A stretch of DNA of 64,000 bases. Origin: Patescibacteria group bacterium (GTDB lineage Bacteria; Patescibacteriota; Patescibacteriia; Patescibacteriales; UBA12465). Made by a program: the position numbers and the translations under genes. Location: positions 70,861 through 134,860 of the forward strand of contig JALNZW010000001.1 of assembly GCA_023229115.1 (NCBI GenBank), written 5' to 3'. Below, in pieces: positions 1 through 7,581 of the stretch. The notes below the pieces were generated by a model that had not been told where the DNA came from, did not search any database, and saw nothing but the letters and a program-made list of their open reading frames with translations. Within the stretch, counting starts at the first letter, position 1, and each line of letters opens with the position of its first letter.

Positions 1-113
1 ATTAATTTTTTGACACTATTAACATCACAAGCATCACCACACAAAAGCTTATGAGGCCCTAGTTCAATAATATCACCTAGCTTAATTAAGCTTTTTTGAT
101 TTTGTATTTTCAT
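1..113 (-). CDS. DNA methyltransferase, N-terminal fragment (gene runs off the window edge)
   Basis: Absent from the ORF track because the window cuts it. My minus-strand translation from the ATG at 113-111 gives MKIQNQKSLIKLGDIIELGPHKLLCGDACDVNSVKKL... This mirrors the GDMFEIAGQRVACGDCTNIETIKKL segment that precedes the DPPY motif in the adjacent methylase. The start overlaps the 3' end of that gene by 32 nt. Confidence 0.45.
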   Translation of the reverse strand, partial: MKIQNQKSLIKLGDIIELGPHKLLCGDACDVNSVKKL

Positions 114-1356
114 ATTTTTCAAGTCTATTAATGATTAATTGAACAAAGATAGGGCTTTGTTCACAGATAAAGCTCTTTCTTTTAAGCTGAGCGCATGCTA
201 GAGCCAGAGATCCTCCGCCCCCGAACATATCGAGTACCACATCATTAACTTTTGTGCATCTTCTAAGGGCTTTCTCGTGGAGCTCAGGGTTCTTATCCGT
301 TGGATGCTCATATTCAGTACTAGGTAGTCGTTTAACTAACCAAATATCTAGCATATCAAGAATATCATCTATAGCTCGGTTGCCATTTTCTATATCTTTG
401 TTAAGGATCTCACTGAGGTTTTTAGTGTTTGATAGATAAGGTTTTCCTTTTACCCCATAAAGCACTGGCTCATAACATCTATTGAAAGCAGTTTGAGGAG
501 TAATATTCATGCCATTTTTTATCCAGAGTGCTGTACGCTTATAATTAACTTTCAACTCTTTGTATATCTCTTGAAACATTCCAGTGTATTTTGGATCGTG
601 ATAATAGAAGACATGAACATTATCTTTGCTAACTGATAATCCATTCGATAATGACTTTTTTATAAACTCCTTATATTCACTGTCGCTTTTATTATCATTA
701 ACTACGCCTCTATAATTTTGTTTACCCCCTAAACCTTTTGAATAATTCAAGCCAATATTATAGGGTGGATCTGTATAGATCATGTCAGCTTTGTCTTCAC
801 CCATTAACTTCTTAATGGTTTCAATATTTGTGCAATCCCCACAAGCAACTCTTTGCCCAGCAATCTCAAACATATCACCCGTTGTAATTTTGGTTGTCTT
901 AGCTTTTTCTATCTCTTTTTCAATATTGAAGTTATCATCTTCTACTTCTAGAGTTTCATCAAAGATTTTTGAAAAATCTAATTCATCAAAACCTGTGTCT
1001 AGGAGCAGATCAATATCTAAGGACTTTAATAGTTCGTAATCCCATTCGCCAGTGTTACGATTTAATCTTAGATTTAGTTCTTTTTCTTTGTCTTGGGGAA
1101 GTGATAGGTATACAACTGGAACTGTTTTGAATTTTAGCTTTTGAGCTATCTTAAAACGTGCATGCCCACCAATTATTGTATTTTCTCTTCCAGGGTAGGA
1201 GTTGACTATAATAGGATCAACTAAGCCAAAGCGTTTTAGGCTTTCCGTTAAATCTAGTTCTTGTTTCTCGGTCATTTTACGAGGATTATAACTAGAAGGT
1301 TTTAAAGAGCTGATAGAAACCTCTTCAATTTTAATGTTTTGAATTGTTTTCTGCAT
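82..1356 (-). CDS. ParB-like nuclease domain fused to N6-adenine/N4-cytosine DNA methyltransferase
   Basis: 424-aa ORF. The N-terminus has a ParB/Srx-type pattern (LKPSSYNPRKM...IIGGHARFKIAQKL). The C-terminal half has motif IV IYTDPPYNIG followed late by motif I FGGGGSLALA (beta-class order). No restriction enzyme is seen nearby. Confidence 0.85.
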   Translation of the reverse strand: MQKTIQNIKIEEVSISSLKPSSYNPRKMTEKQELDLTESLKRFGLVDPIIVNSYPGRENTIIGGHARFKIAQKLKFKTVPVVYLSLPQDKEKELNLRLNRNTGEWDYELLKSLDIDLLLDTGFDELDFSKIFDETLEVEDDNFNIEKEIEKAKTTKITTGDMFEIAGQRVACGDCTNIETIKKLMGEDKADMIYTDPPYNIGLNYSKGLGGKQNYRGVVNDNKSDSEYKEFIKKSLSNGLSVSKDNVHVFYYHDPKYTGMFQEIYKELKVNYKRTALWIKNGMNITPQTAFNRCYEPVLYGVKGKPYLSNTKNLSEILNKDIENGNRAIDDILDMLDIWLVKRLPSTEYEHPTDKNPELHEKALRRCTKVNDVVLDMFGGGGSLALACAQLKRKSFICEQSPIFVQLIINRLEKYENTKSKKLN

Positions 1357-1732
1357 AGAAATTAATTTAAATTATTAGATGTTGGTTTTTCCAAATAAAA
1401 AAACCCACATTTTCGAATTTGAAGTATAGGGACTCACCCCTCTTCAAAATTCTTTCCGTTAGGTTCTTATAATTGCTTATTAATTTCTATTAGCTCTATA
1501 AAGGCAGGCTTTTTTGGTAACGCATTTGTGCGGACCTGTCTCTAGTTATTTAGTTGTTAATTTAATAATAGCATTATTAAAAAAATAACGCAAGTATTTT
1601 GTTTAATGTTAGCAAAAACAGATATAATATGACTTGTGATATCGCATTATAAGTTATTTAATTTTAGATAAAAAATAGGCTATCTGGGCAATAATAGTTA
1701 ATAATTTGTGTATAACTTTTTGTTTAACTATC

Positions 1733-1760
1733 TTGACTTTATTATTATTTGTGCTATACT
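1733..1760 (+). promoter_or_regulatory. sigma70-type promoter with extended -10
   Basis: TTGACT (1733-1738), 16-nt spacer, TGcTATACT (1752-1760). It lies 785 nt upstream of the next convincing CDS (2545). Confidence 0.5.
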
Positions 1761-1766
1761 AGATAT

Positions 1767-2380
1767 TGAGAATGATTCGTTCTCTTAGCTCATTGACAGT
1801 ATAAAGAAGAGAGATTACCAATTATCAGGTTAATCCAGACTCTCACGGGTTTAAGACCCATAATTGAAAAGAGATATTTATCTCTTACTTCTCGGATAGA
1901 GAAGGCGTTTTGCCCCGTGCAGATATTTGTCTCTGTTGCTCAGAAACATGAAATATTTGTATTGTGTGTGATTTAACATCATAAACAAAATAAATATTAC
2001 ATAACACTGTGTAAATCTAACTGTTTTATAGTTGAATATAAAATTAGTAGACAAATAAAATTCCGGAATAGGTAAAAATACATCCTTTGTTTTAGCGACA
2101 AGGGGTTAACGGTTCTGCTACTTTTAGTAGTTGCAGGCCAGTATGCTGCCAAAGAGCCGAGAGTCAGAAATTGGCCTGCGATGAATGAAGTGCAAATCGT
2201 TAGATTTAGATTTCGGATGACTTATAAATTTAACAATTTAAACTTTAAATATATGCAATATAAAAATTCATATAAGCAAGATAAGGTAATCGCCCTGCTC
2301 ATTACCTTTAATCAAATAACCAAACAGGTTTTGAGGTTAAAAATAAAAGATAAGCAGGCTCTCGGCCTGCTTGCTGATGC
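1767..2380 (+). ncRNA. Candidate structured non-coding RNA region (possible retron msr/msd); boundaries unresolved
   Basis: Downstream of the promoter are GC-enriched patches in an AT-rich background. Hairpins: AAGAGAT/ATCTCTT (1869-1886) and CTTCTC/GAGAAG (1888-1904), possibly enclosed by CACGGG(1854-1859)/CCCGTG(1914-1919). Also GCAGGCCA(2133-2140)/TGGCCTGC(2172-2179) and AAGCAGGC(2352-2359)/GCCTGCTT(2365-2372). I could not identify a1/a2 repeats or a branching G. Confidence 0.3.
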
Positions 2381-2544
2381 CATGCAAATTAATAAGCAAT
2401 TATTATCCTTAATTAAGAATAATAAAACCAGTTTAGAATTTGTAAGACAGACGTTCACTATTATTTCAATTATTTTGAAAGAAGTAGTCAGCAAGTGGCT
2501 CTTCCGTTACAATTTAACGCCAGTAATGGCTTAAAAATATAAAT

Positions 2545-2859
2545 ATGGCATCAATAGGACAATTAATAAAAATTGGCAGAATCAATAAGAGTCTTAGTCA
2601 GGAAGATGTTGCCTCTAAGTTAAAGGTGACAAAGAATTATATTTCTTTGGTTGAAAATAATAAGAAAGATCCAAGCATAAACTTCTTGAAAAAGATTTCA
2701 AAATTACTTGATATTCCTGTAATTCTTTTAATTTGGGAAAAAATTGATCTACCAAAAGGGAAAACAGAGTCTGAAAAGAAAATATTGTCTCAATTAGAGA
2801 ACATGATAGAAAATGCTCAGAAGATTTTTGCAGACGAATCTTTTAAAACAAAAAGATGA
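2545..2859 (+). CDS. XRE-family helix-turn-helix transcriptional regulator
   Basis: 104-aa ORF with a classic XRE HTH (LSQEDVASKLKVTKNYISLVENNKKDPSINFLKKISKLL). Its stop overlaps the RT start (ATGA at 2856-2859). Confidence 0.85.
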   Translation: MASIGQLIKIGRINKSLSQEDVASKLKVTKNYISLVENNKKDPSINFLKKISKLLDIPVILLIWEKIDLPKGKTESEKKILSQLENMIENAQKIFADESFKTKR

Positions 2860-3773
2860 AAAAAAGGAAATTATTAAATATTAATACGATCTCAGAACTT
2901 AGTCGTCAAATCGGTCTTCCAGAAGAATTTTTATTAAGGGTTTCTGAAAATATAAATAATTATTATGAAAAATTTGAAGCTAGAGATAAAAAAGGTAAAG
3001 AAAGGTCATTTTATTCTGCAAATAATGATTTAAAAAAAATACATAAGTCTATAAACAGGCTTTTAGATTCATTAGACTATCCAATTAATATACAAGGAGG
3101 AATTACTAAAAGATCAATAGTAACAAATGCTTCAATGCATGTGGGAAAAAAATATGTAGCAAACTATGATATAAAAAATTTTTTCCCCAGCGTGAATTAT
3201 AGAATTGTCTATAAAGCCTTTCGGAGGCAAAAATGTGCACCAGATGTTTCAAGAATATTAACAATGCTGACTACTGCAGATGGATGTCTGCCTCAAGGTT
3301 TTGCTACAAGTCCTAAAATTTCTGGATTAGTTTTATATAATGCTAATTTCAGAATAGAAAAACTTTTGCGACCATTTGGATTAGTTCATACTTTTTGGAT
3401 AGATGATTTAACCATATCTGGCCATCATCCAATAAAAAAGTTTCAAAAATTATTATATAAAATATTTAAACAAGAGGGTTTTAGTTTGCACGATGATCCT
3501 AAAAAGGCTAAAATAACCGATTCAAAACATCGTCAAACTTGCACTGGACTTATTATTAATCAGGAATTAAACCCCGAAAGAGGGCTTAAAAGTAAGGTTA
3601 GAAAAGAAATTTATTTATGTAAAAAGTTTGGTATTAAAAATTTTTTAGAAGAGCATAATTCACCATTTGATAAAGATACATACTTAAAAAAATTAGCTGG
3701 TAATATTAGTTTTTTATGCAATGTAAATAAAAAGAATATAATTTTTAAAAAAGAATTAGAATTATTAAAATAA
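2856..3773 (+). CDS. Retron-type reverse transcriptase
   Basis: 305 aa, retron-size. Motifs: TNASMH (retron NAxxH), NYDIKNFFPSV, CLPQGFATSPKISGL, FWIDDLTISG (YxDD box) and RQTCTGLIINQ (VTG-like). It is collinear with Ec86 RT as I recall that sequence. Confidence 0.85.
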   Translation: MKKRKLLNINTISELSRQIGLPEEFLLRVSENINNYYEKFEARDKKGKERSFYSANNDLKKIHKSINRLLDSLDYPINIQGGITKRSIVTNASMHVGKKYVANYDIKNFFPSVNYRIVYKAFRRQKCAPDVSRILTMLTTADGCLPQGFATSPKISGLVLYNANFRIEKLLRPFGLVHTFWIDDLTISGHHPIKKFQKLLYKIFKQEGFSLHDDPKKAKITDSKHRQTCTGLIINQELNPERGLKSKVRKEIYLCKKFGIKNFLEEHNSPFDKDTYLKKLAGNISFLCNVNKKNIIFKKELELLK

Positions 3774-3774
3774 T

Positions 3775-4524
3775 ATGTCAGAATATTATACGCCAAAAAG
3801 AATGAAGGGGCTATACAATCCAGAATCAAAAGAACCATTCAAGTTGTCGAGATCTAAAATAGATTTATTTTTAGAATGTCCTCGATGTTTTTATTATGAT
3901 CGCAGACTTGGGACTGGCAGACCACCAGGATTTCCCTTTGCTTTAAATTCGGCAGTCGATTATCTTCTGAAACAAGAATTCGATATTTATAGAGCAAACG
4001 GAGAAAATCATCCGCTAATACATAAGTATGGGATAGACGCTCGACCGATTCCGCACGAAGATTTGGATAATTGGAGACATAATTTTACAGGCATTCAATT
4101 TTTACATAAACCAACCAATCTTTTAATATTTGGCGCCATTGACGATCTTTGGCAGAATTCAAAAGGTGAATATATTGTCGTTGATTATAAGTCGACATCT
4201 AAAAATGAAAAGATATTTGAGCTTAATAAGGATTGGCAGATTGGTTACAAAAGACAGATGGAGGTTTATCAATGGCTATTGAGACAAAATGGGTACAAAG
4301 TATCAGATGTTGGCTATTTTGTTTATTGTAACGGAATAACTGATAGAAAAGCATTTGACGCTAAATTAGAATTTGATATAACCCTTATCCCTTATACGGG
4401 TAATGATTCATGGATAGAAAAAACAATTTTGGCCGCTCATAAATGTTTAAATGACGACGTAATCCCAGTATCTGGTCAGGATTGTGATTATTGTAAATAT
4501 ATAGATGCTGTTAATAATAGATAA
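3775..4524 (+). CDS. PD-(D/E)XK (Cas4/RecB-like) nuclease with four Cys
   Basis: 249 aa. N-terminal LSRSKIDLFLECPRCFYY, then GAIDDL...YIVVDYKST (D...DxK), QMEVYQWLL (QxxxY) and a C-terminal CDYCKY. Starts 1 nt after the RT stop. Confidence 0.75.
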   Translation: MSEYYTPKRMKGLYNPESKEPFKLSRSKIDLFLECPRCFYYDRRLGTGRPPGFPFALNSAVDYLLKQEFDIYRANGENHPLIHKYGIDARPIPHEDLDNWRHNFTGIQFLHKPTNLLIFGAIDDLWQNSKGEYIVVDYKSTSKNEKIFELNKDWQIGYKRQMEVYQWLLRQNGYKVSDVGYFVYCNGITDRKAFDAKLEFDITLIPYTGNDSWIEKTILAAHKCLNDDVIPVSGQDCDYCKYIDAVNNR

Positions 4525-4541
4525 AACTATTTTGATTTTAT

Positions 4542-5030
4542 ATGTCTGTAAAAAAGTCTGAAAAGAAACGTAGATCGGATATTATCTTTGGTATTTTGTT
4601 AGCCTCAACTCTCGGGGTAATTTTAAATTTATTTTCAAGTTTATATTATGATTTATTTGTTAAAAAAATAATAAAATGGTCAGATGTTAATCAGCAGCAC
4701 GTGATGATTTGGTTTTTCATTCTTTTAGCCACATGGGGTTTTATTAGCTTCTTTGTTTATGATTATAAAAATAATGTAGAAATAAATAAGGTTCTTTTTT
4801 GGAAAAGGTTTGGAAACTATTTTTTTAAATCTTTCAAGCCTTTTAAGATACTAAAAATAATTACCGGATTATATTTAATTATCTTTATAATTTTTTTGAT
4901 TTTTATATTTTTGATAACTTTATTTTTTATAATAAATGAGGTTACAAATTGGCTATTTGCATCTACTTCGGTCGTCTTAATATTAATAGGTATAATTTTA
5001 CATATTTACAAGAAGTACTTAAAAAAATAA
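4542..5030 (+). CDS. Small integral membrane protein (about 4 TM segments)
   Basis: 162-aa ORF, 17 nt after the nuclease gene. Four hydrophobic stretches, e.g. IIFGILLASTLGVILNLF and LYLIIFIIFLIFIFLITLFFII. No recognisable domain. Confidence 0.6.
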   Translation: MSVKKSEKKRRSDIIFGILLASTLGVILNLFSSLYYDLFVKKIIKWSDVNQQHVMIWFFILLATWGFISFFVYDYKNNVEINKVLFWKRFGNYFFKSFKPFKILKIITGLYLIIFIIFLIFIFLITLFFIINEVTNWLFASTSVVLILIGIILHIYKKYLKK

Positions 5031-5063
5031 TAGATATTTTTAAATAGGTTTTTATTAAATATA

Positions 5064-5092
5064 AAAAATCACCCTCGACCTAGGTGATTTTA
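5064..5092. terminator. Bidirectional intrinsic terminator
   Basis: AAATCACC (5066-5073) / GGTGATTT (5083-5090) stem, with an A-run upstream and T's downstream. Sits between convergent genes ending at 5030 (+) and 5169 (-). Confidence 0.5.
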
Positions 5093-5168
5093 AATAAATA
5101 TCTAAAACATTTTGTCCCTATATTGCCCGCATTTCTGCGTATGACTAACAAAATATAATAGAATATTC

Positions 5169-5384
5169 TTATTTCATTATATCAATCTTATTCTCTTTCA
5201 AATAATTAATAATATCTTCTTCTGAAAATCTGATAACGCCGCTTATTTTATAAAAAGGAATTTTTCTGCTCTCAACTATTCTATAAGCTGTCGTTTTAGA
5301 TATATTAAATATATTTTTAAGATCATTAATTGATAATAATTTTAAATTTTTTAGCAACTTTTCATTCATAATATTATTATACAA
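5169..5384 (-). CDS. Excisionase-family (MerR-like) HTH DNA-binding protein
   Basis: 71 aa. LSINDLKNIFNISKTTAYRIVESRKIPFYKISGVIRFSEEDIINYL matches the excisionase-type HTH pattern. Confidence 0.7.
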   Translation of the reverse strand: MYNNIMNEKLLKNLKLLSINDLKNIFNISKTTAYRIVESRKIPFYKISGVIRFSEEDIINYLKENKIDIMK

Positions 5385-5405
5385 TAAAATAAATCAATTA
5401 AAAAT

Positions 5406-5807
5406 ATGAGGTTTATAAGATTAGCCAGGAAGTTGGATTTAGATAATATAAAAATATGGCTTGAAGATGAATATAAAAAGTACGGCGAAGGTTTTTTTGT
5501 TAATGTAGACGTTGTAGAGAAATATTTTGAAAAGAAAGAGTTATTTGTCTGTATTCATGATAATTTTCCAGCTGGTTTTATAACAGGTCCATTTGATGGG
5601 CCAAGCATTCTAAATGTAAAGAAAGGGCATAAAAGAAGAGGTATTGGTAAGAAATTATTTAAATATTTTTTAAATGAAGCTAAAAAACAACATATTAATG
5701 TTATAAAAATACAATGCAAGCCAGAATCATCTATCAAATTCTGGGAAACAATGGGTTTTTCTATTAAAAATGATAATGGTCACCACTATGGACAATATAA
5801 AATATAA
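5406..5807 (+). CDS. GNAT-family N-acetyltransferase
   Basis: 133 aa. Acetyl-CoA motif A-like KRRGIGKKLF plus a C-terminal FWETMGF pattern. Confidence 0.7.
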   Translation: MRFIRLARKLDLDNIKIWLEDEYKKYGEGFFVNVDVVEKYFEKKELFVCIHDNFPAGFITGPFDGPSILNVKKGHKRRGIGKKLFKYFLNEAKKQHINVIKIQCKPESSIKFWETMGFSIKNDNGHHYGQYKI

Positions 5808-5988
5808 TGCATCCAAAACAAAAAATATATCATTAACAAGCTGTAAGAGTTTGAAGATAATTTTTGATATTACAGAAATAAACTTGGTGTATTTTTAGCA
5901 TTCCCAGAATTAGATAATAATAAGTATTTTGAATTAATTCCTCAAAGTTTTTTAGTAAAATACAAACTAGATAAATAAATCATAAAAT

Positions 5989-7581
5989 ATGGAAAATAAA
6001 GACTTAAAGTTACTAGATACAATTGATTATATAAAAAATAAGCTTGGAAAATCAGAGTGGATTGCTGTTTTTGAATTTATCGAAAACAAGTCTTATGATC
6101 AGGGCACATATTTTTCAGCCCTAATTTCAAACAAAAATGTCAGCGATAGTTTAAAGAAATATGACTGGGATTTGCGTCTCTCTGACGGAAGGCCAGGATT
6201 TTCTACTACTTATAAAAATGGAAAATCAAAAACAAAGTATTATCGTTTTCTCGACAAGAATATTGAGTCATTTGTTTACGTAAGATTTTTTAATGGTAAA
6301 GAAAAAATATTAGAGATATCTGAAGAATTTAGATTGTTTTTTGATTTATATGAAAAATATATTGATCAAAATAATAAAATATATATTAACACAGATGAAG
6401 ATGGGGATGAAAATGAGGTAGCTCGTATAAGTAAAAATAAAATTGAAATAAAACTAAAGTATCTTAAAGAATACTTGTCTATTAAAAAAAAGAGTTTAGC
6501 TATTTATTATGAATTTACGAGATTTTCAGATAAAAAAATCGAAGACTTAGATATAGATTTTGCTGATAAAATTGAATCAGGAGAAGATTACATTTATCAT
6601 TTATCTATTAGGAATTTAAGTTTAGATGAAAGACAATCTATTGGATCTATTCTTGGGAAAAAGATTATAAAAGGACTAAAAAGATATTCTCCGCCCGATA
6701 TTTTAAAGCCAGATAAAAGTAAATTCGAAAAATATATTATAAATACTGATAGTGATGGTAATGACGTTTTATCTACTTGTAATATAGGGTATCAATCAGA
6801 AGTTCATTATTTAACCCCTATATTTTTTAAAAAAGAGGTGCTGAGAAAATATTACGATAGTCCAGCCAAATATACAGTCGATGATGGATATTTAAAGTGT
6901 GACGGTTTTTGGAGTTTAAGAATGATGAATAACCATTTAGATCATGTTGTGGTTTGGCTTGGTGATTTAAAAGGACTTCCACATAAAGAGCAAACTTATT
7001 GGAAAGGTTTTAATCTAACTCCTGATAATAGAAAAATTAGTCATGCTGATTTTGAAAGAAATATAAATGGTGAATTTTCGGATCCTGAAAATCCGGAGTA
7101 CTATTTTAAGTATAAATTCGAAGATTTTCAAGAAAAATGGAATAAAAAATTTGGCTGGTATTTATTTAAAAAGCTAAATGAGGATGATAATCATCATCTT
7201 AAATCTTTACATGTGCCCACAACTAATGAGCAGAAAGAATTTGATGAGCAGATTATTTCAATTACAAAAATACTAATTGATTCTTTAAATGAGGCAATGC
7301 TAAACAAGGGCATTTCTCTTGAAAGTGAAAACCCTAAAGGAATAGATAAATTAGAGGGTTTTTTAAAAAATAAAGGGGTTGTTTTTAAGGAGATGATATC
7401 TTTTTTGAGAAATCTGCAATCATTACGCTCTACTGGAGTAGCTCATCGCAAGGGCACTAAGTACGAAGAGGTGAAAAAGATATTTGGAGTTGGGGATAAA
7501 GAATTTAAAGATGTTTTTGATGATATATTGATAAAATGTATTTGGACTTTAAATTCACTGGAAAGTAAATTATTGTCATAA
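5989..7581 (+). CDS. Hypothetical protein, 530 aa (possible C-terminal HEPN-like motif)
   Basis: Long uninterrupted ORF with non-random composition. No family recognised. The C-terminal FLRNLQSLRSTGVAHRKG contains an Rx5H spacing. Confidence 0.6.
   Translation: MENKDLKLLDTIDYIKNKLGKSEWIAVFEFIENKSYDQGTYFSALISNKNVSDSLKKYDWDLRLSDGRPGFSTTYKNGKSKTKYYRFLDKNIESFVYVRFFNGKEKILEISEEFRLFFDLYEKYIDQNNKIYINTDEDGDENEVARISKNKIEIKLKYLKEYLSIKKKSLAIYYEFTRFSDKKIEDLDIDFADKIESGEDYIYHLSIRNLSLDERQSIGSILGKKIIKGLKRYSPPDILKPDKSKFEKYIINTDSDGNDVLSTCNIGYQSEVHYLTPIFFKKEVLRKYYDSPAKYTVDDGYLKCDGFWSLRMMNNHLDHVVVWLGDLKGLPHKEQTYWKGFNLTPDNRKISHADFERNINGEFSDPENPEYYFKYKFEDFQEKWNKKFGWYLFKKLNEDDNHHLKSLHVPTTNEQKEFDEQIISITKILIDSLNEAMLNKGISLESENPKGIDKLEGFLKNKGVVFKEMISFLRNLQSLRSTGVAHRKGTKYEEVKKIFGVGDKEFKDVFDDILIKCIWTLNSLESKLLS

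Follow-up and report, generated by a model that had tools for sequence, protein, structure and literature searches.

A putative hybrid of structured RNA and small-protein gene at the front of a type VI retron operon in Patescibacteria

The locus and its genes

We analyzed a stretch of 64,000 nucleotides (hereafter the window, to which coordinates refer unless they are given for another locus) from contig JALNZW010000001.1 of a Patescibacteria group bacterium, in which the operon of a retron reverse transcriptase (RT) is preceded by a long gap between genes (1357-2544). A sequence-only reading had singled out this gap as 1.2 kb of gene-free DNA with its own promoter, and as the possible source of a non-coding RNA (ncRNA) of the retron msr-msd type. 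Our comparison with related loci bears out the core idea that the RT operon is preceded by a structured, retron-type RNA having a promoter of its own, since this promoter and a leader of ~490 nt are conserved in all related loci and the leader covaries; the gap is not free of genes, as a conserved gene for a small protein (SP) of 93 aa begins at 2253. The segment 1700-2544 very probably makes up the first half of the operon of a type VI retron, comprising a promoter, a structured RNA of ~490 nt and the SP gene.

The SP gene (2253-2534), which encodes a presumed toxic effector, is followed on the same, forward strand by genes for a Cro/C1-type helix-turn-helix (HTH) protein (2545-2859; 104 aa; Pfam HTH_3, 2.1e-12; PADLOC HTH_VI, 2.9e-20), the RT (2856-3773; 305 aa; Pfam RVT_1; PADLOC RT_VI, 1.6e-65) and a Cas4-like PD-(D/E)XK nuclease (3775-4524; Pfam PDDEXK_1, 1.6e-14; Cas4 models, ~1e-7 to 4e-8). 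PADLOC ranks HTH_VI first for the HTH protein and RT_VI first for the RT, in the latter case among 40 retron RT models and with a full-length match of 219 bits; these profile matches point to a type VI retron. Protein-alignment scans of genomes and metagenomes recovered 38 loci, mostly from candidate-phyla-radiation (CPR) assemblies, and contig ends permitting, SP, HTH and RT genes keep the same order and spacing in every one of them. Type VI was defined by a Cro/C1-type HTH protein of 91-110 aa whose gene lies upstream of the RT gene or overlaps it, and its small auxiliary proteins were described as three-helix bundles (Mestre et al., 2020). At the present locus the 104-aa HTH protein matches both HTH_3 and HTH_VI and its gene overlaps the RT gene by 4 nt, while a 93-aa reading frame with three predicted helices lies directly upstream of the HTH gene in 38 of 38 loci. 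The PD-(D/E)XK gene begins 5-20 nt after the RT gene in 22 of the 25 distinct loci with enough downstream sequence, and is thus a conserved fourth gene of this lineage. When the RT was searched by tblastn against plasmids and phages, only relatives at no more than 32% identity were returned. The retron is a new lineage and variant within the recently described type VI kind rather than a new kind.

A conserved small-protein gene

On a crude open reading frame (ORF) map, 1357-2544 is the largest of 53 intergenic gaps in the window (median 52 nt, two above 500 nt), in agreement with the unusual length first ascribed to it. Apart from ORF 2181-2534, no ORF of 60 aa or more lies between the start of a methyltransferase gene (1356) and the HTH gene (2545). 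This ORF had been taken for random AT-rich sequence, which its composition does resemble, and without comparison of homologues the gene is easily missed. It has 52 homologues, however (E down to 7e-49, mostly 93-99 aa, 24 invariant columns), among them one that is 100% identical, from a Patescibacteria assembly. As the homologues align to the last 93 residues of the ORF, the true start is the ATG at 2253, and the non-coding gap consequently shrinks to 1357-2252. Across 19 representative genes the median ratio of non-synonymous to synonymous substitution rates (dN/dS) is 0.19, and variability by codon position (0.148/0.095/0.279) bears a coding signature; SP is a conserved gene under purifying selection. 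[quoted passage not shown] AlphaFold predicts SP as three helices (predicted local distance difference test score 72.5). The protein had no match in Pfam, PADLOC, NCBIfam or PHROGs, and its model, compared with the PDB using Foldseek, gave nothing below E = 1.

In addition to its coding signal, the SP gene carries signs of constraint at the RNA level. A hairpin (AAGCAGGC-UCUCG-GCCUGCUU), the two arms of which had been recognized as an 8-bp stem (2352-2359/2365-2372) from the sequence and are indeed present, shares the stretch 2352-2377 with an invariant 23-mer (2355-2377) which is unique in the window and identical in 18 of 19 aligned sequences, the remaining one (L022) having a single A-for-G change. 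Third-position variability falls to 0.0 for codons 36-41, and these frozen synonymous sites coincide with complementarity to the ncRNA. A scan of viral contigs with the 23-mer returned no match. In two loci SP stops 7-9 codons early through a change of TAC to TAA or TAG (L006, ~3560-3600; L018, ~1270-1300), and the nucleotides past the early stop are still conserved (CCGTTA, TTTAACGCCA...TGGC); this persistence beyond the stops shows that the 3' end of the SP region is constrained as RNA. Separately, locus L007 (1027-3717) lacks the SP N-terminus and has its PD-(D/E)XK gene split into two ORFs; it looks like a decaying copy, and assembly errors in the metagenome-assembled genome could be the cause.

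Promoter and extent of the conserved module

Compared with 27 distinct loci, the nucleotide sequence turns homologous abruptly at 1698-1707 and stays so to ~2540, and the sequence from 1357 to ~1700 is unrelated between loci. The latter stretch, part of the 1.2 kb first singled out, is therefore outside the element. It is probably the promoter region of the methyltransferase gene, since that gene is transcribed divergently from the retron. At 1733-1760 lies a sigma-70-type promoter on the forward strand (TTGACT, 16-nt spacer, extended -10 TGcTATACT), which had been proposed at this very position and is the best match in the region (10/12). Promoter-like sites number 9 in the region against 8.7 in shuffled sequence, and we accept this one as real because it is conserved in homologues, not because of the site count: the -35, the TGnTAnnnT -10 and a distance of 6-9 nt to the first hairpin (H1) are kept in 16 of the 16 homologues listed. 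Transcription would accordingly start near 1767. Upstream of the -35, a conserved block (TGTGTATAACT-N4/5-GTyWAAC, 1706-1730, forward strand) is kept even where the sequence further upstream is unrelated, and is a candidate operator for the HTH protein.

The putative transcript, supported by homology, fold and covariation, is a hybrid RNA (1767-2534, forward strand) made up of a structured non-coding part (1767-2252) and the SP coding part (2253-2534), and it probably continues into the HTH, RT and nuclease genes. GC content is 0.334 in 1762-2252, and rises to 0.434 in 1838-1920 and 0.475 in 2100-2200, against 0.292 in the whole window, so that the local enrichment reported earlier is confirmed in two patches (0.43-0.48 vs. 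0.29).

Structure and covariation of the leader RNA

The leader (1767-2252, ~490 nt) is as conserved as coding sequence. Three of its non-coding blocks (1763-1802, 1863-1922, and 2103-2202) are conserved at 0.83-0.93, matching or exceeding the coding sequence of SP, and the stretch 2003-2042 is variable. The RNA 1762-2547 folds at -205 kcal/mol, with z = -6.4 relative to dinucleotide shuffles. We tested a structure of 74 pairs on an alignment of 19 sequences, using as controls the same pairs with partners slid by 1-3 columns, and 500 shuffles. In the true register, 98.0% of cells are paired, as against 33-44% after sliding, and 17 pairs are changed on both sides, whereas shuffles give 5.3 +/- 1.6 and none of the 500 reaches 17. 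The covariation analysis of homologous loci that had been suggested as a check on the ncRNA thus returned a conserved structure. A covariance model of the 5' domain (R1) finds exactly one strong match per locus (129-184 bits), always upstream of SP, including a match of 132.8 bits in L007, although this locus had been left out of model building. It has no other strong match in the 64-kb window. A weak and non-significant second match lies inside the SP gene (2349-2495; 12.9 bits, E = 1.3), and also in L001, because GACUCUCACGG (1838-1848) resembles GGCUCUCGG (2357-2365). An Rfam scan of 1-6000 at E <= 10 gave no match.

The 5' part of the leader is a cluster of short hairpins, all of which, like the elements described below, lie on the forward strand. 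H1 (GAGAAUG-AUU-CGUUCUC, 1768-1784) has a 7-bp stem that is paired in 100% of cells and of which four of seven pairs are changed on both sides. H2 (GGGU-UUAAG-ACCC, 1847-1859) is a local hairpin that forms in each of the 19 sequences; it shows compensatory changes (GGAC/GUCC, for example), and some sequences have GNRA loops. The two adjacent hairpins named from the sequence alone, H3 (1869-1886) and H4 (1888-1904), are present and covary: four of seven H3 pairs are changed on both sides, and H4 has 99% of cells paired and one compensatory pair. H5 (GCG-UUU-UGC, 1905-1913) adds a stem of 3 bp with 98% of cells paired and one compensatory pair. A CACGGG/CCCGTG pairing had been envisaged as the closure of H3 and H4. 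Its 5' arm lies at 1844-1849, and not at 1854-1859 as first given, and the closure is possible, in that RNAalifold selects it; we rejected it as the preferred fold given that it is broken in four lineages (L008, L037, L022, and L034) and H2 is kept in all 19 sequences.

Next follows a long imperfect hairpin, H6 (1924-2063), which varies in sequence and length, coincides with the least conserved stretch (0.26-0.55) and is a candidate msd stem (putative template for reverse transcription). Of a skeleton of 17 pairs, eight are changed on both sides; its cells are 90% paired in register and 30-47% paired after sliding. Homologue sequences individually fold into a long hairpin at this place. H7 (2083-2105), directly 5' of UUAACGG, recurs with unrelated stem sequences in most homologues; it was assigned from per-sequence folds only, the MAFFT alignment being out of register there. 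The segment containing H6 and H7 ranges from ~136 to 257 nt across homologues. Beyond it, stem P (2130-2182) extends an 8-bp stem noticed earlier (2133-2140/2172-2179) to 13 bp (2130-2142 with 2170-2182). It is 98% paired, includes a pair (2132/2180) that is CG in nine sequences and UA in seven, and occupies the most conserved non-coding block (0.86-0.92).

The leader closes with H8 (2186-2247). Folded one by one, most sequences are predicted to form this hairpin, which covers the region upstream of the SP start and ends 4-9 nt before the SP AUG in most of them. Its core (AUCGUUAR, 2196-2203, with UUAACRAU, 2229-2236) is 84% paired, as against 16-45% when slid, and one pair is CG in eight sequences and UA in four. 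The SP start region is thereby sequestered in the H8 stem; which element exactly is sequestered we infer only, because a Shine-Dalgarno sequence is not recognizable.

Long-range and alternative pairings

The loop of stem P carries a segment (CAAAGAGCCGAGAGUC, 2150-2165), here termed hub X, which is complementary to three others: segment A (1788-1795), segment B (1838-1847), and a site in the SP coding sequence (2359-2366). Segment A (GCUCAUUG) is the 5' arm of a long-range duplex with 2150-2157 (LR1), which has 94% of cells paired, carries compensatory changes (A-U to U-A in L008 and L026; G-C to A-U in L023) and forms in the minimum free energy (MFE) fold of the ncRNA alone. Segment B (GACUCUC, followed by CACGGG; 1838-1849) is the 5' arm of a second duplex (LR2, 1838-1847 with 2158-2165), with 98.7% of cells paired and compensatory changes in L008, L007, and L034. 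The third complementarity, GCCGAGAG/CUCUCGGC (8 nt, the latter being the site in the SP gene), is present in 19 of 19 sequences. The duplexes of A and of B cross, and are therefore either alternatives or a pseudoknot.

One of these two duplexes is presumably the a1/a2-type priming duplex of the retron. In favor of LR2, a near-invariant GGG directly follows segment B: CACGGG is near-invariant at 1844-1849, G1848 is invariant, and G1847-1849 hold the candidate branching G. In support of LR1, segment A follows H1, as the 5' repeat follows a stem-loop in the cl2075 family discussed below. The sequence-only reading had instead nominated copies of GCAGGC/GCCTGC at 2133 and 2365 as a1/a2. We set this pair aside as a weaker candidate, since both arms are invariant and LR1 and LR2, which carry compensatory changes, are better supported. 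The clustering of that motif is real to the extent that five of its eight copies in the window fall within 1504-2370, with the copy at 1504 outside the conserved module; eight copies in 64 kb is about the number expected by chance for the whole window.

The SP gene is flanked by a further long-range repeat. Its 5' arm (UUAACGG...GCUAC, 2106-2121) pairs with 2495-2509, and the 11 pairs of 2107-2121 with 2495-2509 are 100% paired and either invariant or changed only to G-U. The 3' arm region (2495-2530) comprises GUGGC (2495-2499), CCGUUA (2504-2509), a copy of UUUAAC (2513-2518) and a GCCA/UGGC hairpin (2519-2530). UUUAAC(G/A) occurs at 2105, 2228, and 2513, with its complement at 2196-2203 and 2504-2509, and the repetition is found in 18 of 19 sequences. 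Three copies and two complements allow, therefore, for mutually exclusive pairings (a:b, b:c, a:d). Which set of these pairings the MFE fold adopts differs between the ncRNA taken alone and the full transcript.

Comparison with described retrons

In canonical retron msr-msd RNAs such as that of Ec86, inverted repeats place the 5' region beside the template's 3' end, the 5' arm is followed by a conserved G, and short hairpins and a long variable stem complete the RNA, which has no embedded protein gene. Inverted repeats, a conserved G, short hairpins, and a long variable stem are found here too; the present RNA differs in its embedded SP gene, in having two competing 5' arms, in being several times longer, and in the absence of any Rfam match at E <= 10.

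Type VI was the class of retrons whose RNA was not known before two preprints of 2025-2026. [quoted passage not shown] As far as its published description allows comparison, the present locus is alike in several respects: a transcript, predicted here, from a native promoter with a structured, msr-msd-like part and then the SP gene, an SP start region in a hairpin, an SP 3' end base-paired with the non-coding part, short direct repeats on the template side and in the riboregulator (here UUUAAC at 2105, 2228, and 2513), and the gene order SP-HTH-RT. It differs in the length of the RNA (~770 nt vs. ~470 nt), in its SP of 93 aa from an unrelated sequence family, in its CPR host, and in the Cas4-like nuclease gene that follows the RT.

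In Retron-Sen3, single-stranded DNA and SP are constitutive, the HTH protein is the antitoxin, RecBCD inhibition is the trigger, and two RNA conformations are described; RNAs of the cl2075 family have a stem-loop before the 5' repeat, a long variable stem-loop (SL3), a repeat flanking SP, and RNA-level selection in SP (Garcia-Rodriguez et al., 2026; bioRxiv 10.64898/2026.04.27.721009). The counterparts here are H1 immediately before segment A, which pairs with 2150-2157; H6 as a long stem-loop within the RNA, the middle of which is not conserved; the long-range inverted repeat flanking SP together with RNA-level selection within its coding sequence; and predicted folds that differ between the ncRNA alone and the extended transcript. 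Unlike in that family, where the 3' repeat arm follows the stop codon, the arm here lies inside the last SP codons, and a nuclease gene is added. Against a cl2075 example from Yersinia phage vB_YenM_56.17 (L039), the HTH protein is 36% identical and the RT only ~29%, and BLASTP detected no similarity between SP and the phage SP, the one cl2075 SP compared; cl2760, cl3272, and cl3897 are the other named clusters of type VI SPs. R1 found no match in this type VI retron or in a Bacteroides plasmid RT locus. The architectural features of both published type VI RNAs are thus all found here, and sequence-level homology to the cl2075 RNA or SP is not.

The nuclease encoded by the fourth gene matches PDDEXK_1 and Cas4 profiles, as do Cas4 and RecB-family PD-(D/E)XK nucleases, and has CxxC motifs at both ends, as in Fe-S Cas4 proteins. 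It scores 31.5 bits where the Cas4 family cut-off is 65, and its gene stands outside any CRISPR context. A phmmer search against PDB sequences gave nothing meaningful. A PD-(D/E)XK partner of type VI retrons is not mentioned by Zhang (2025), Garcia-Rodriguez (2026), or Mestre et al. (2020).

The two preprints give conflicting accounts of toxin control, namely translational in Retron-Vpa2 and post-translational in Retron-Sen3. The present lineage is independent and deeply divergent and shares this RNA architecture, which supports the view that a hybrid transcript of ncRNA and toxin is ancestral to the type. Further, ~28 natural variants with clear covariation, a three-partner RNA hub, and a co-inherited RecB/Cas4-like nuclease provide handles on the coupling of reverse transcription and toxin release.

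Interpretation and alternatives

The conservation, covariation, purifying selection, and synteny of this locus can be set in a working model by analogy with Retron-Vpa2 and Retron-Sen3. The conserved promoter (1733-1760) would drive a long hybrid RNA, the leader of which (1767-2252) may be divided into an msr-like cluster of 5' hairpins, an msd-like long variable hairpin, and a hub formed by stem P and its loop X. The RT presumably binds this RNA and may reverse transcribe part of it, which would yield single-stranded DNA from the msd-like part. The HTH protein would restrain the system, whether as a repressor of reverse transcription or as an antitoxin, and phage interference with DNA-end or recombination functions might release SP, the putative toxin; both this trigger and a role in anti-phage defense are suggested by the same analogy. 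Remodeling of the RNA around hub X and H8 may link DNA synthesis to SP expression, and the lineage's own Cas4-like nuclease may handle the DNA product. A bolder version of this model, which we regard as rather unlikely, would have a four-gene, CPR-specific type VI lineage in which the nuclease replaces host RecBCD, itself a speculative role, and in which the three-way RNA hub couples reverse transcription to toxin translation. If so, the nuclease would turn over msDNA or serve as the guarded target, as RecBCD does for Retron-Vpa2 and Retron-Sen3, and the copying or degradation of X would free the site in the SP gene and remodel the hairpin over the SP start.

Several observations weigh against a type VI hybrid RNA that is reverse transcribed. 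Transcription, msDNA, and toxicity are predicted here from sequence alone, and when type VI retrons, one of them from a Candidatus Levybacteria, were tested in E. coli in a retron census, msDNA was detected in none. The 19 to 28 sequences compared are kin, and the shuffle control ignores phylogeny. LR1 and LR2 cross, so that at most one of them is a priming duplex, and the long-range repeat flanking SP is invariant and hence offers no covariation. The RT scores 209 bits with the RT_III-A model of PADLOC, a small margin below the 219 bits of RT_VI. Lastly, SP lacks sequence similarity to the cl2075 SP of the Yersinia phage retron, and because R1 also misses that retron, it is unproven that the RNA is homologous to the published hyRNA families.

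As an alternative, the leader might be only a cis-regulatory 5' untranslated region, such as a translational riboregulator or attenuator for SP, HTH, and RT expression, which is not reverse transcribed, with the RT template elsewhere or the RT lacking a dedicated msd. The placement of H8 over the SP start region and the switch-like alternative pairings (a:b, b:c, a:d) would suit such a function, as would the general scarcity of detectable msDNA among type VI retrons in earlier tests and the fact that the branching G is not assignable with certainty. We nonetheless consider it improbable, given that the operon has no other conserved non-coding stretch (the HTH and RT genes overlap, and the gap between RT and nuclease genes is 1-20 nt), that the 5' hairpin cluster, covarying terminal inverted repeats, and long variable hairpin are retron hallmarks, and that the equivalent region is reverse transcribed in Retron-Vpa2 and Retron-Sen3.

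Two further explanations are less likely still. Were the locus a gene-free canonical msr-msd, with GCAGGC(C)/GGCCTGC at 2133 and 2365 as a1/a2 and ORF 2181-2534 spurious, then the perfect complementarity of GCAGGCC and GGCCTGC, its conservation in 17 of 19 sequences, and the clustering of the motif in the region would be accounted for. This is very improbable: for the ORF it is already refuted by the evidence that SP is a conserved protein under purifying selection, the 2365 copy sits in SP codons 38-40, both copies are invariant and show no covariation while other long-range duplexes carry compensatory changes, and the covarying 5' hairpins (1768-1913) would fall outside the RNA. The last possibility, to which we give the least credence of all, is an ordinary type II toxin-antitoxin pair, made up of SP and HTH, that merely adjoins an unrelated RT, with the upstream conservation reflecting its promoter or operator and a leader. 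The HTH-SP module of Retron-Sen3 does act as a toxin-antitoxin independently of RT and ncRNA, and the HTH protein here weakly matches HipB- and antitoxin-like models; an unrelated RT is, however, hard to reconcile with an order and spacing of SP, HTH, and RT genes that is fixed in all 38 loci and includes the HTH/RT overlap, a covarying leader of 490 nt far exceeds the needs of an operator, and the RNA-level constraint extends into the SP gene itself.

Flanking genes and minor observations

On its left, the retron is flanked by a divergent gene on the minus strand (82-1356) for a ParB N-terminal domain fused to an N6/N4 DNA methyltransferase, adjacent to which no nuclease partner was seen. On its right, a gene for a predicted membrane protein (4542-5030, forward strand) is common only to two near-identical loci, L001 and L009, and lies outside the conserved module. 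Further downstream are genes for an excisionase-like HTH_17 protein (5169-5384, minus strand) and a GNAT acetyltransferase (5406-5807), neighbors that may hint at a mobile or defense-island context.

A perfect inverted repeat of 18 nt connects 1469-1486 with 2386-2403 (E = 5e-5 in a small BLAST search). One arm lies ~250 nt upstream of the promoter of the retron, in a non-conserved spacer, and the second in the SP codons for QINKQLL. We do not count this repeat as part of the element, because the other loci lack it, their longest inverted matches being 10-14 nt. Loci L001 and L009, which come from a second assembly carrying the same retron, differ from the window at 10 positions in 1401-4780 (0.3%) and at 114 in 1-1400 (8%, in the methyltransferase gene), the last cluster of differences lying at 1509-1517. 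The retron cassette thus looks to have been exchanged recently, with its left edge near the 18-nt inverted copy.

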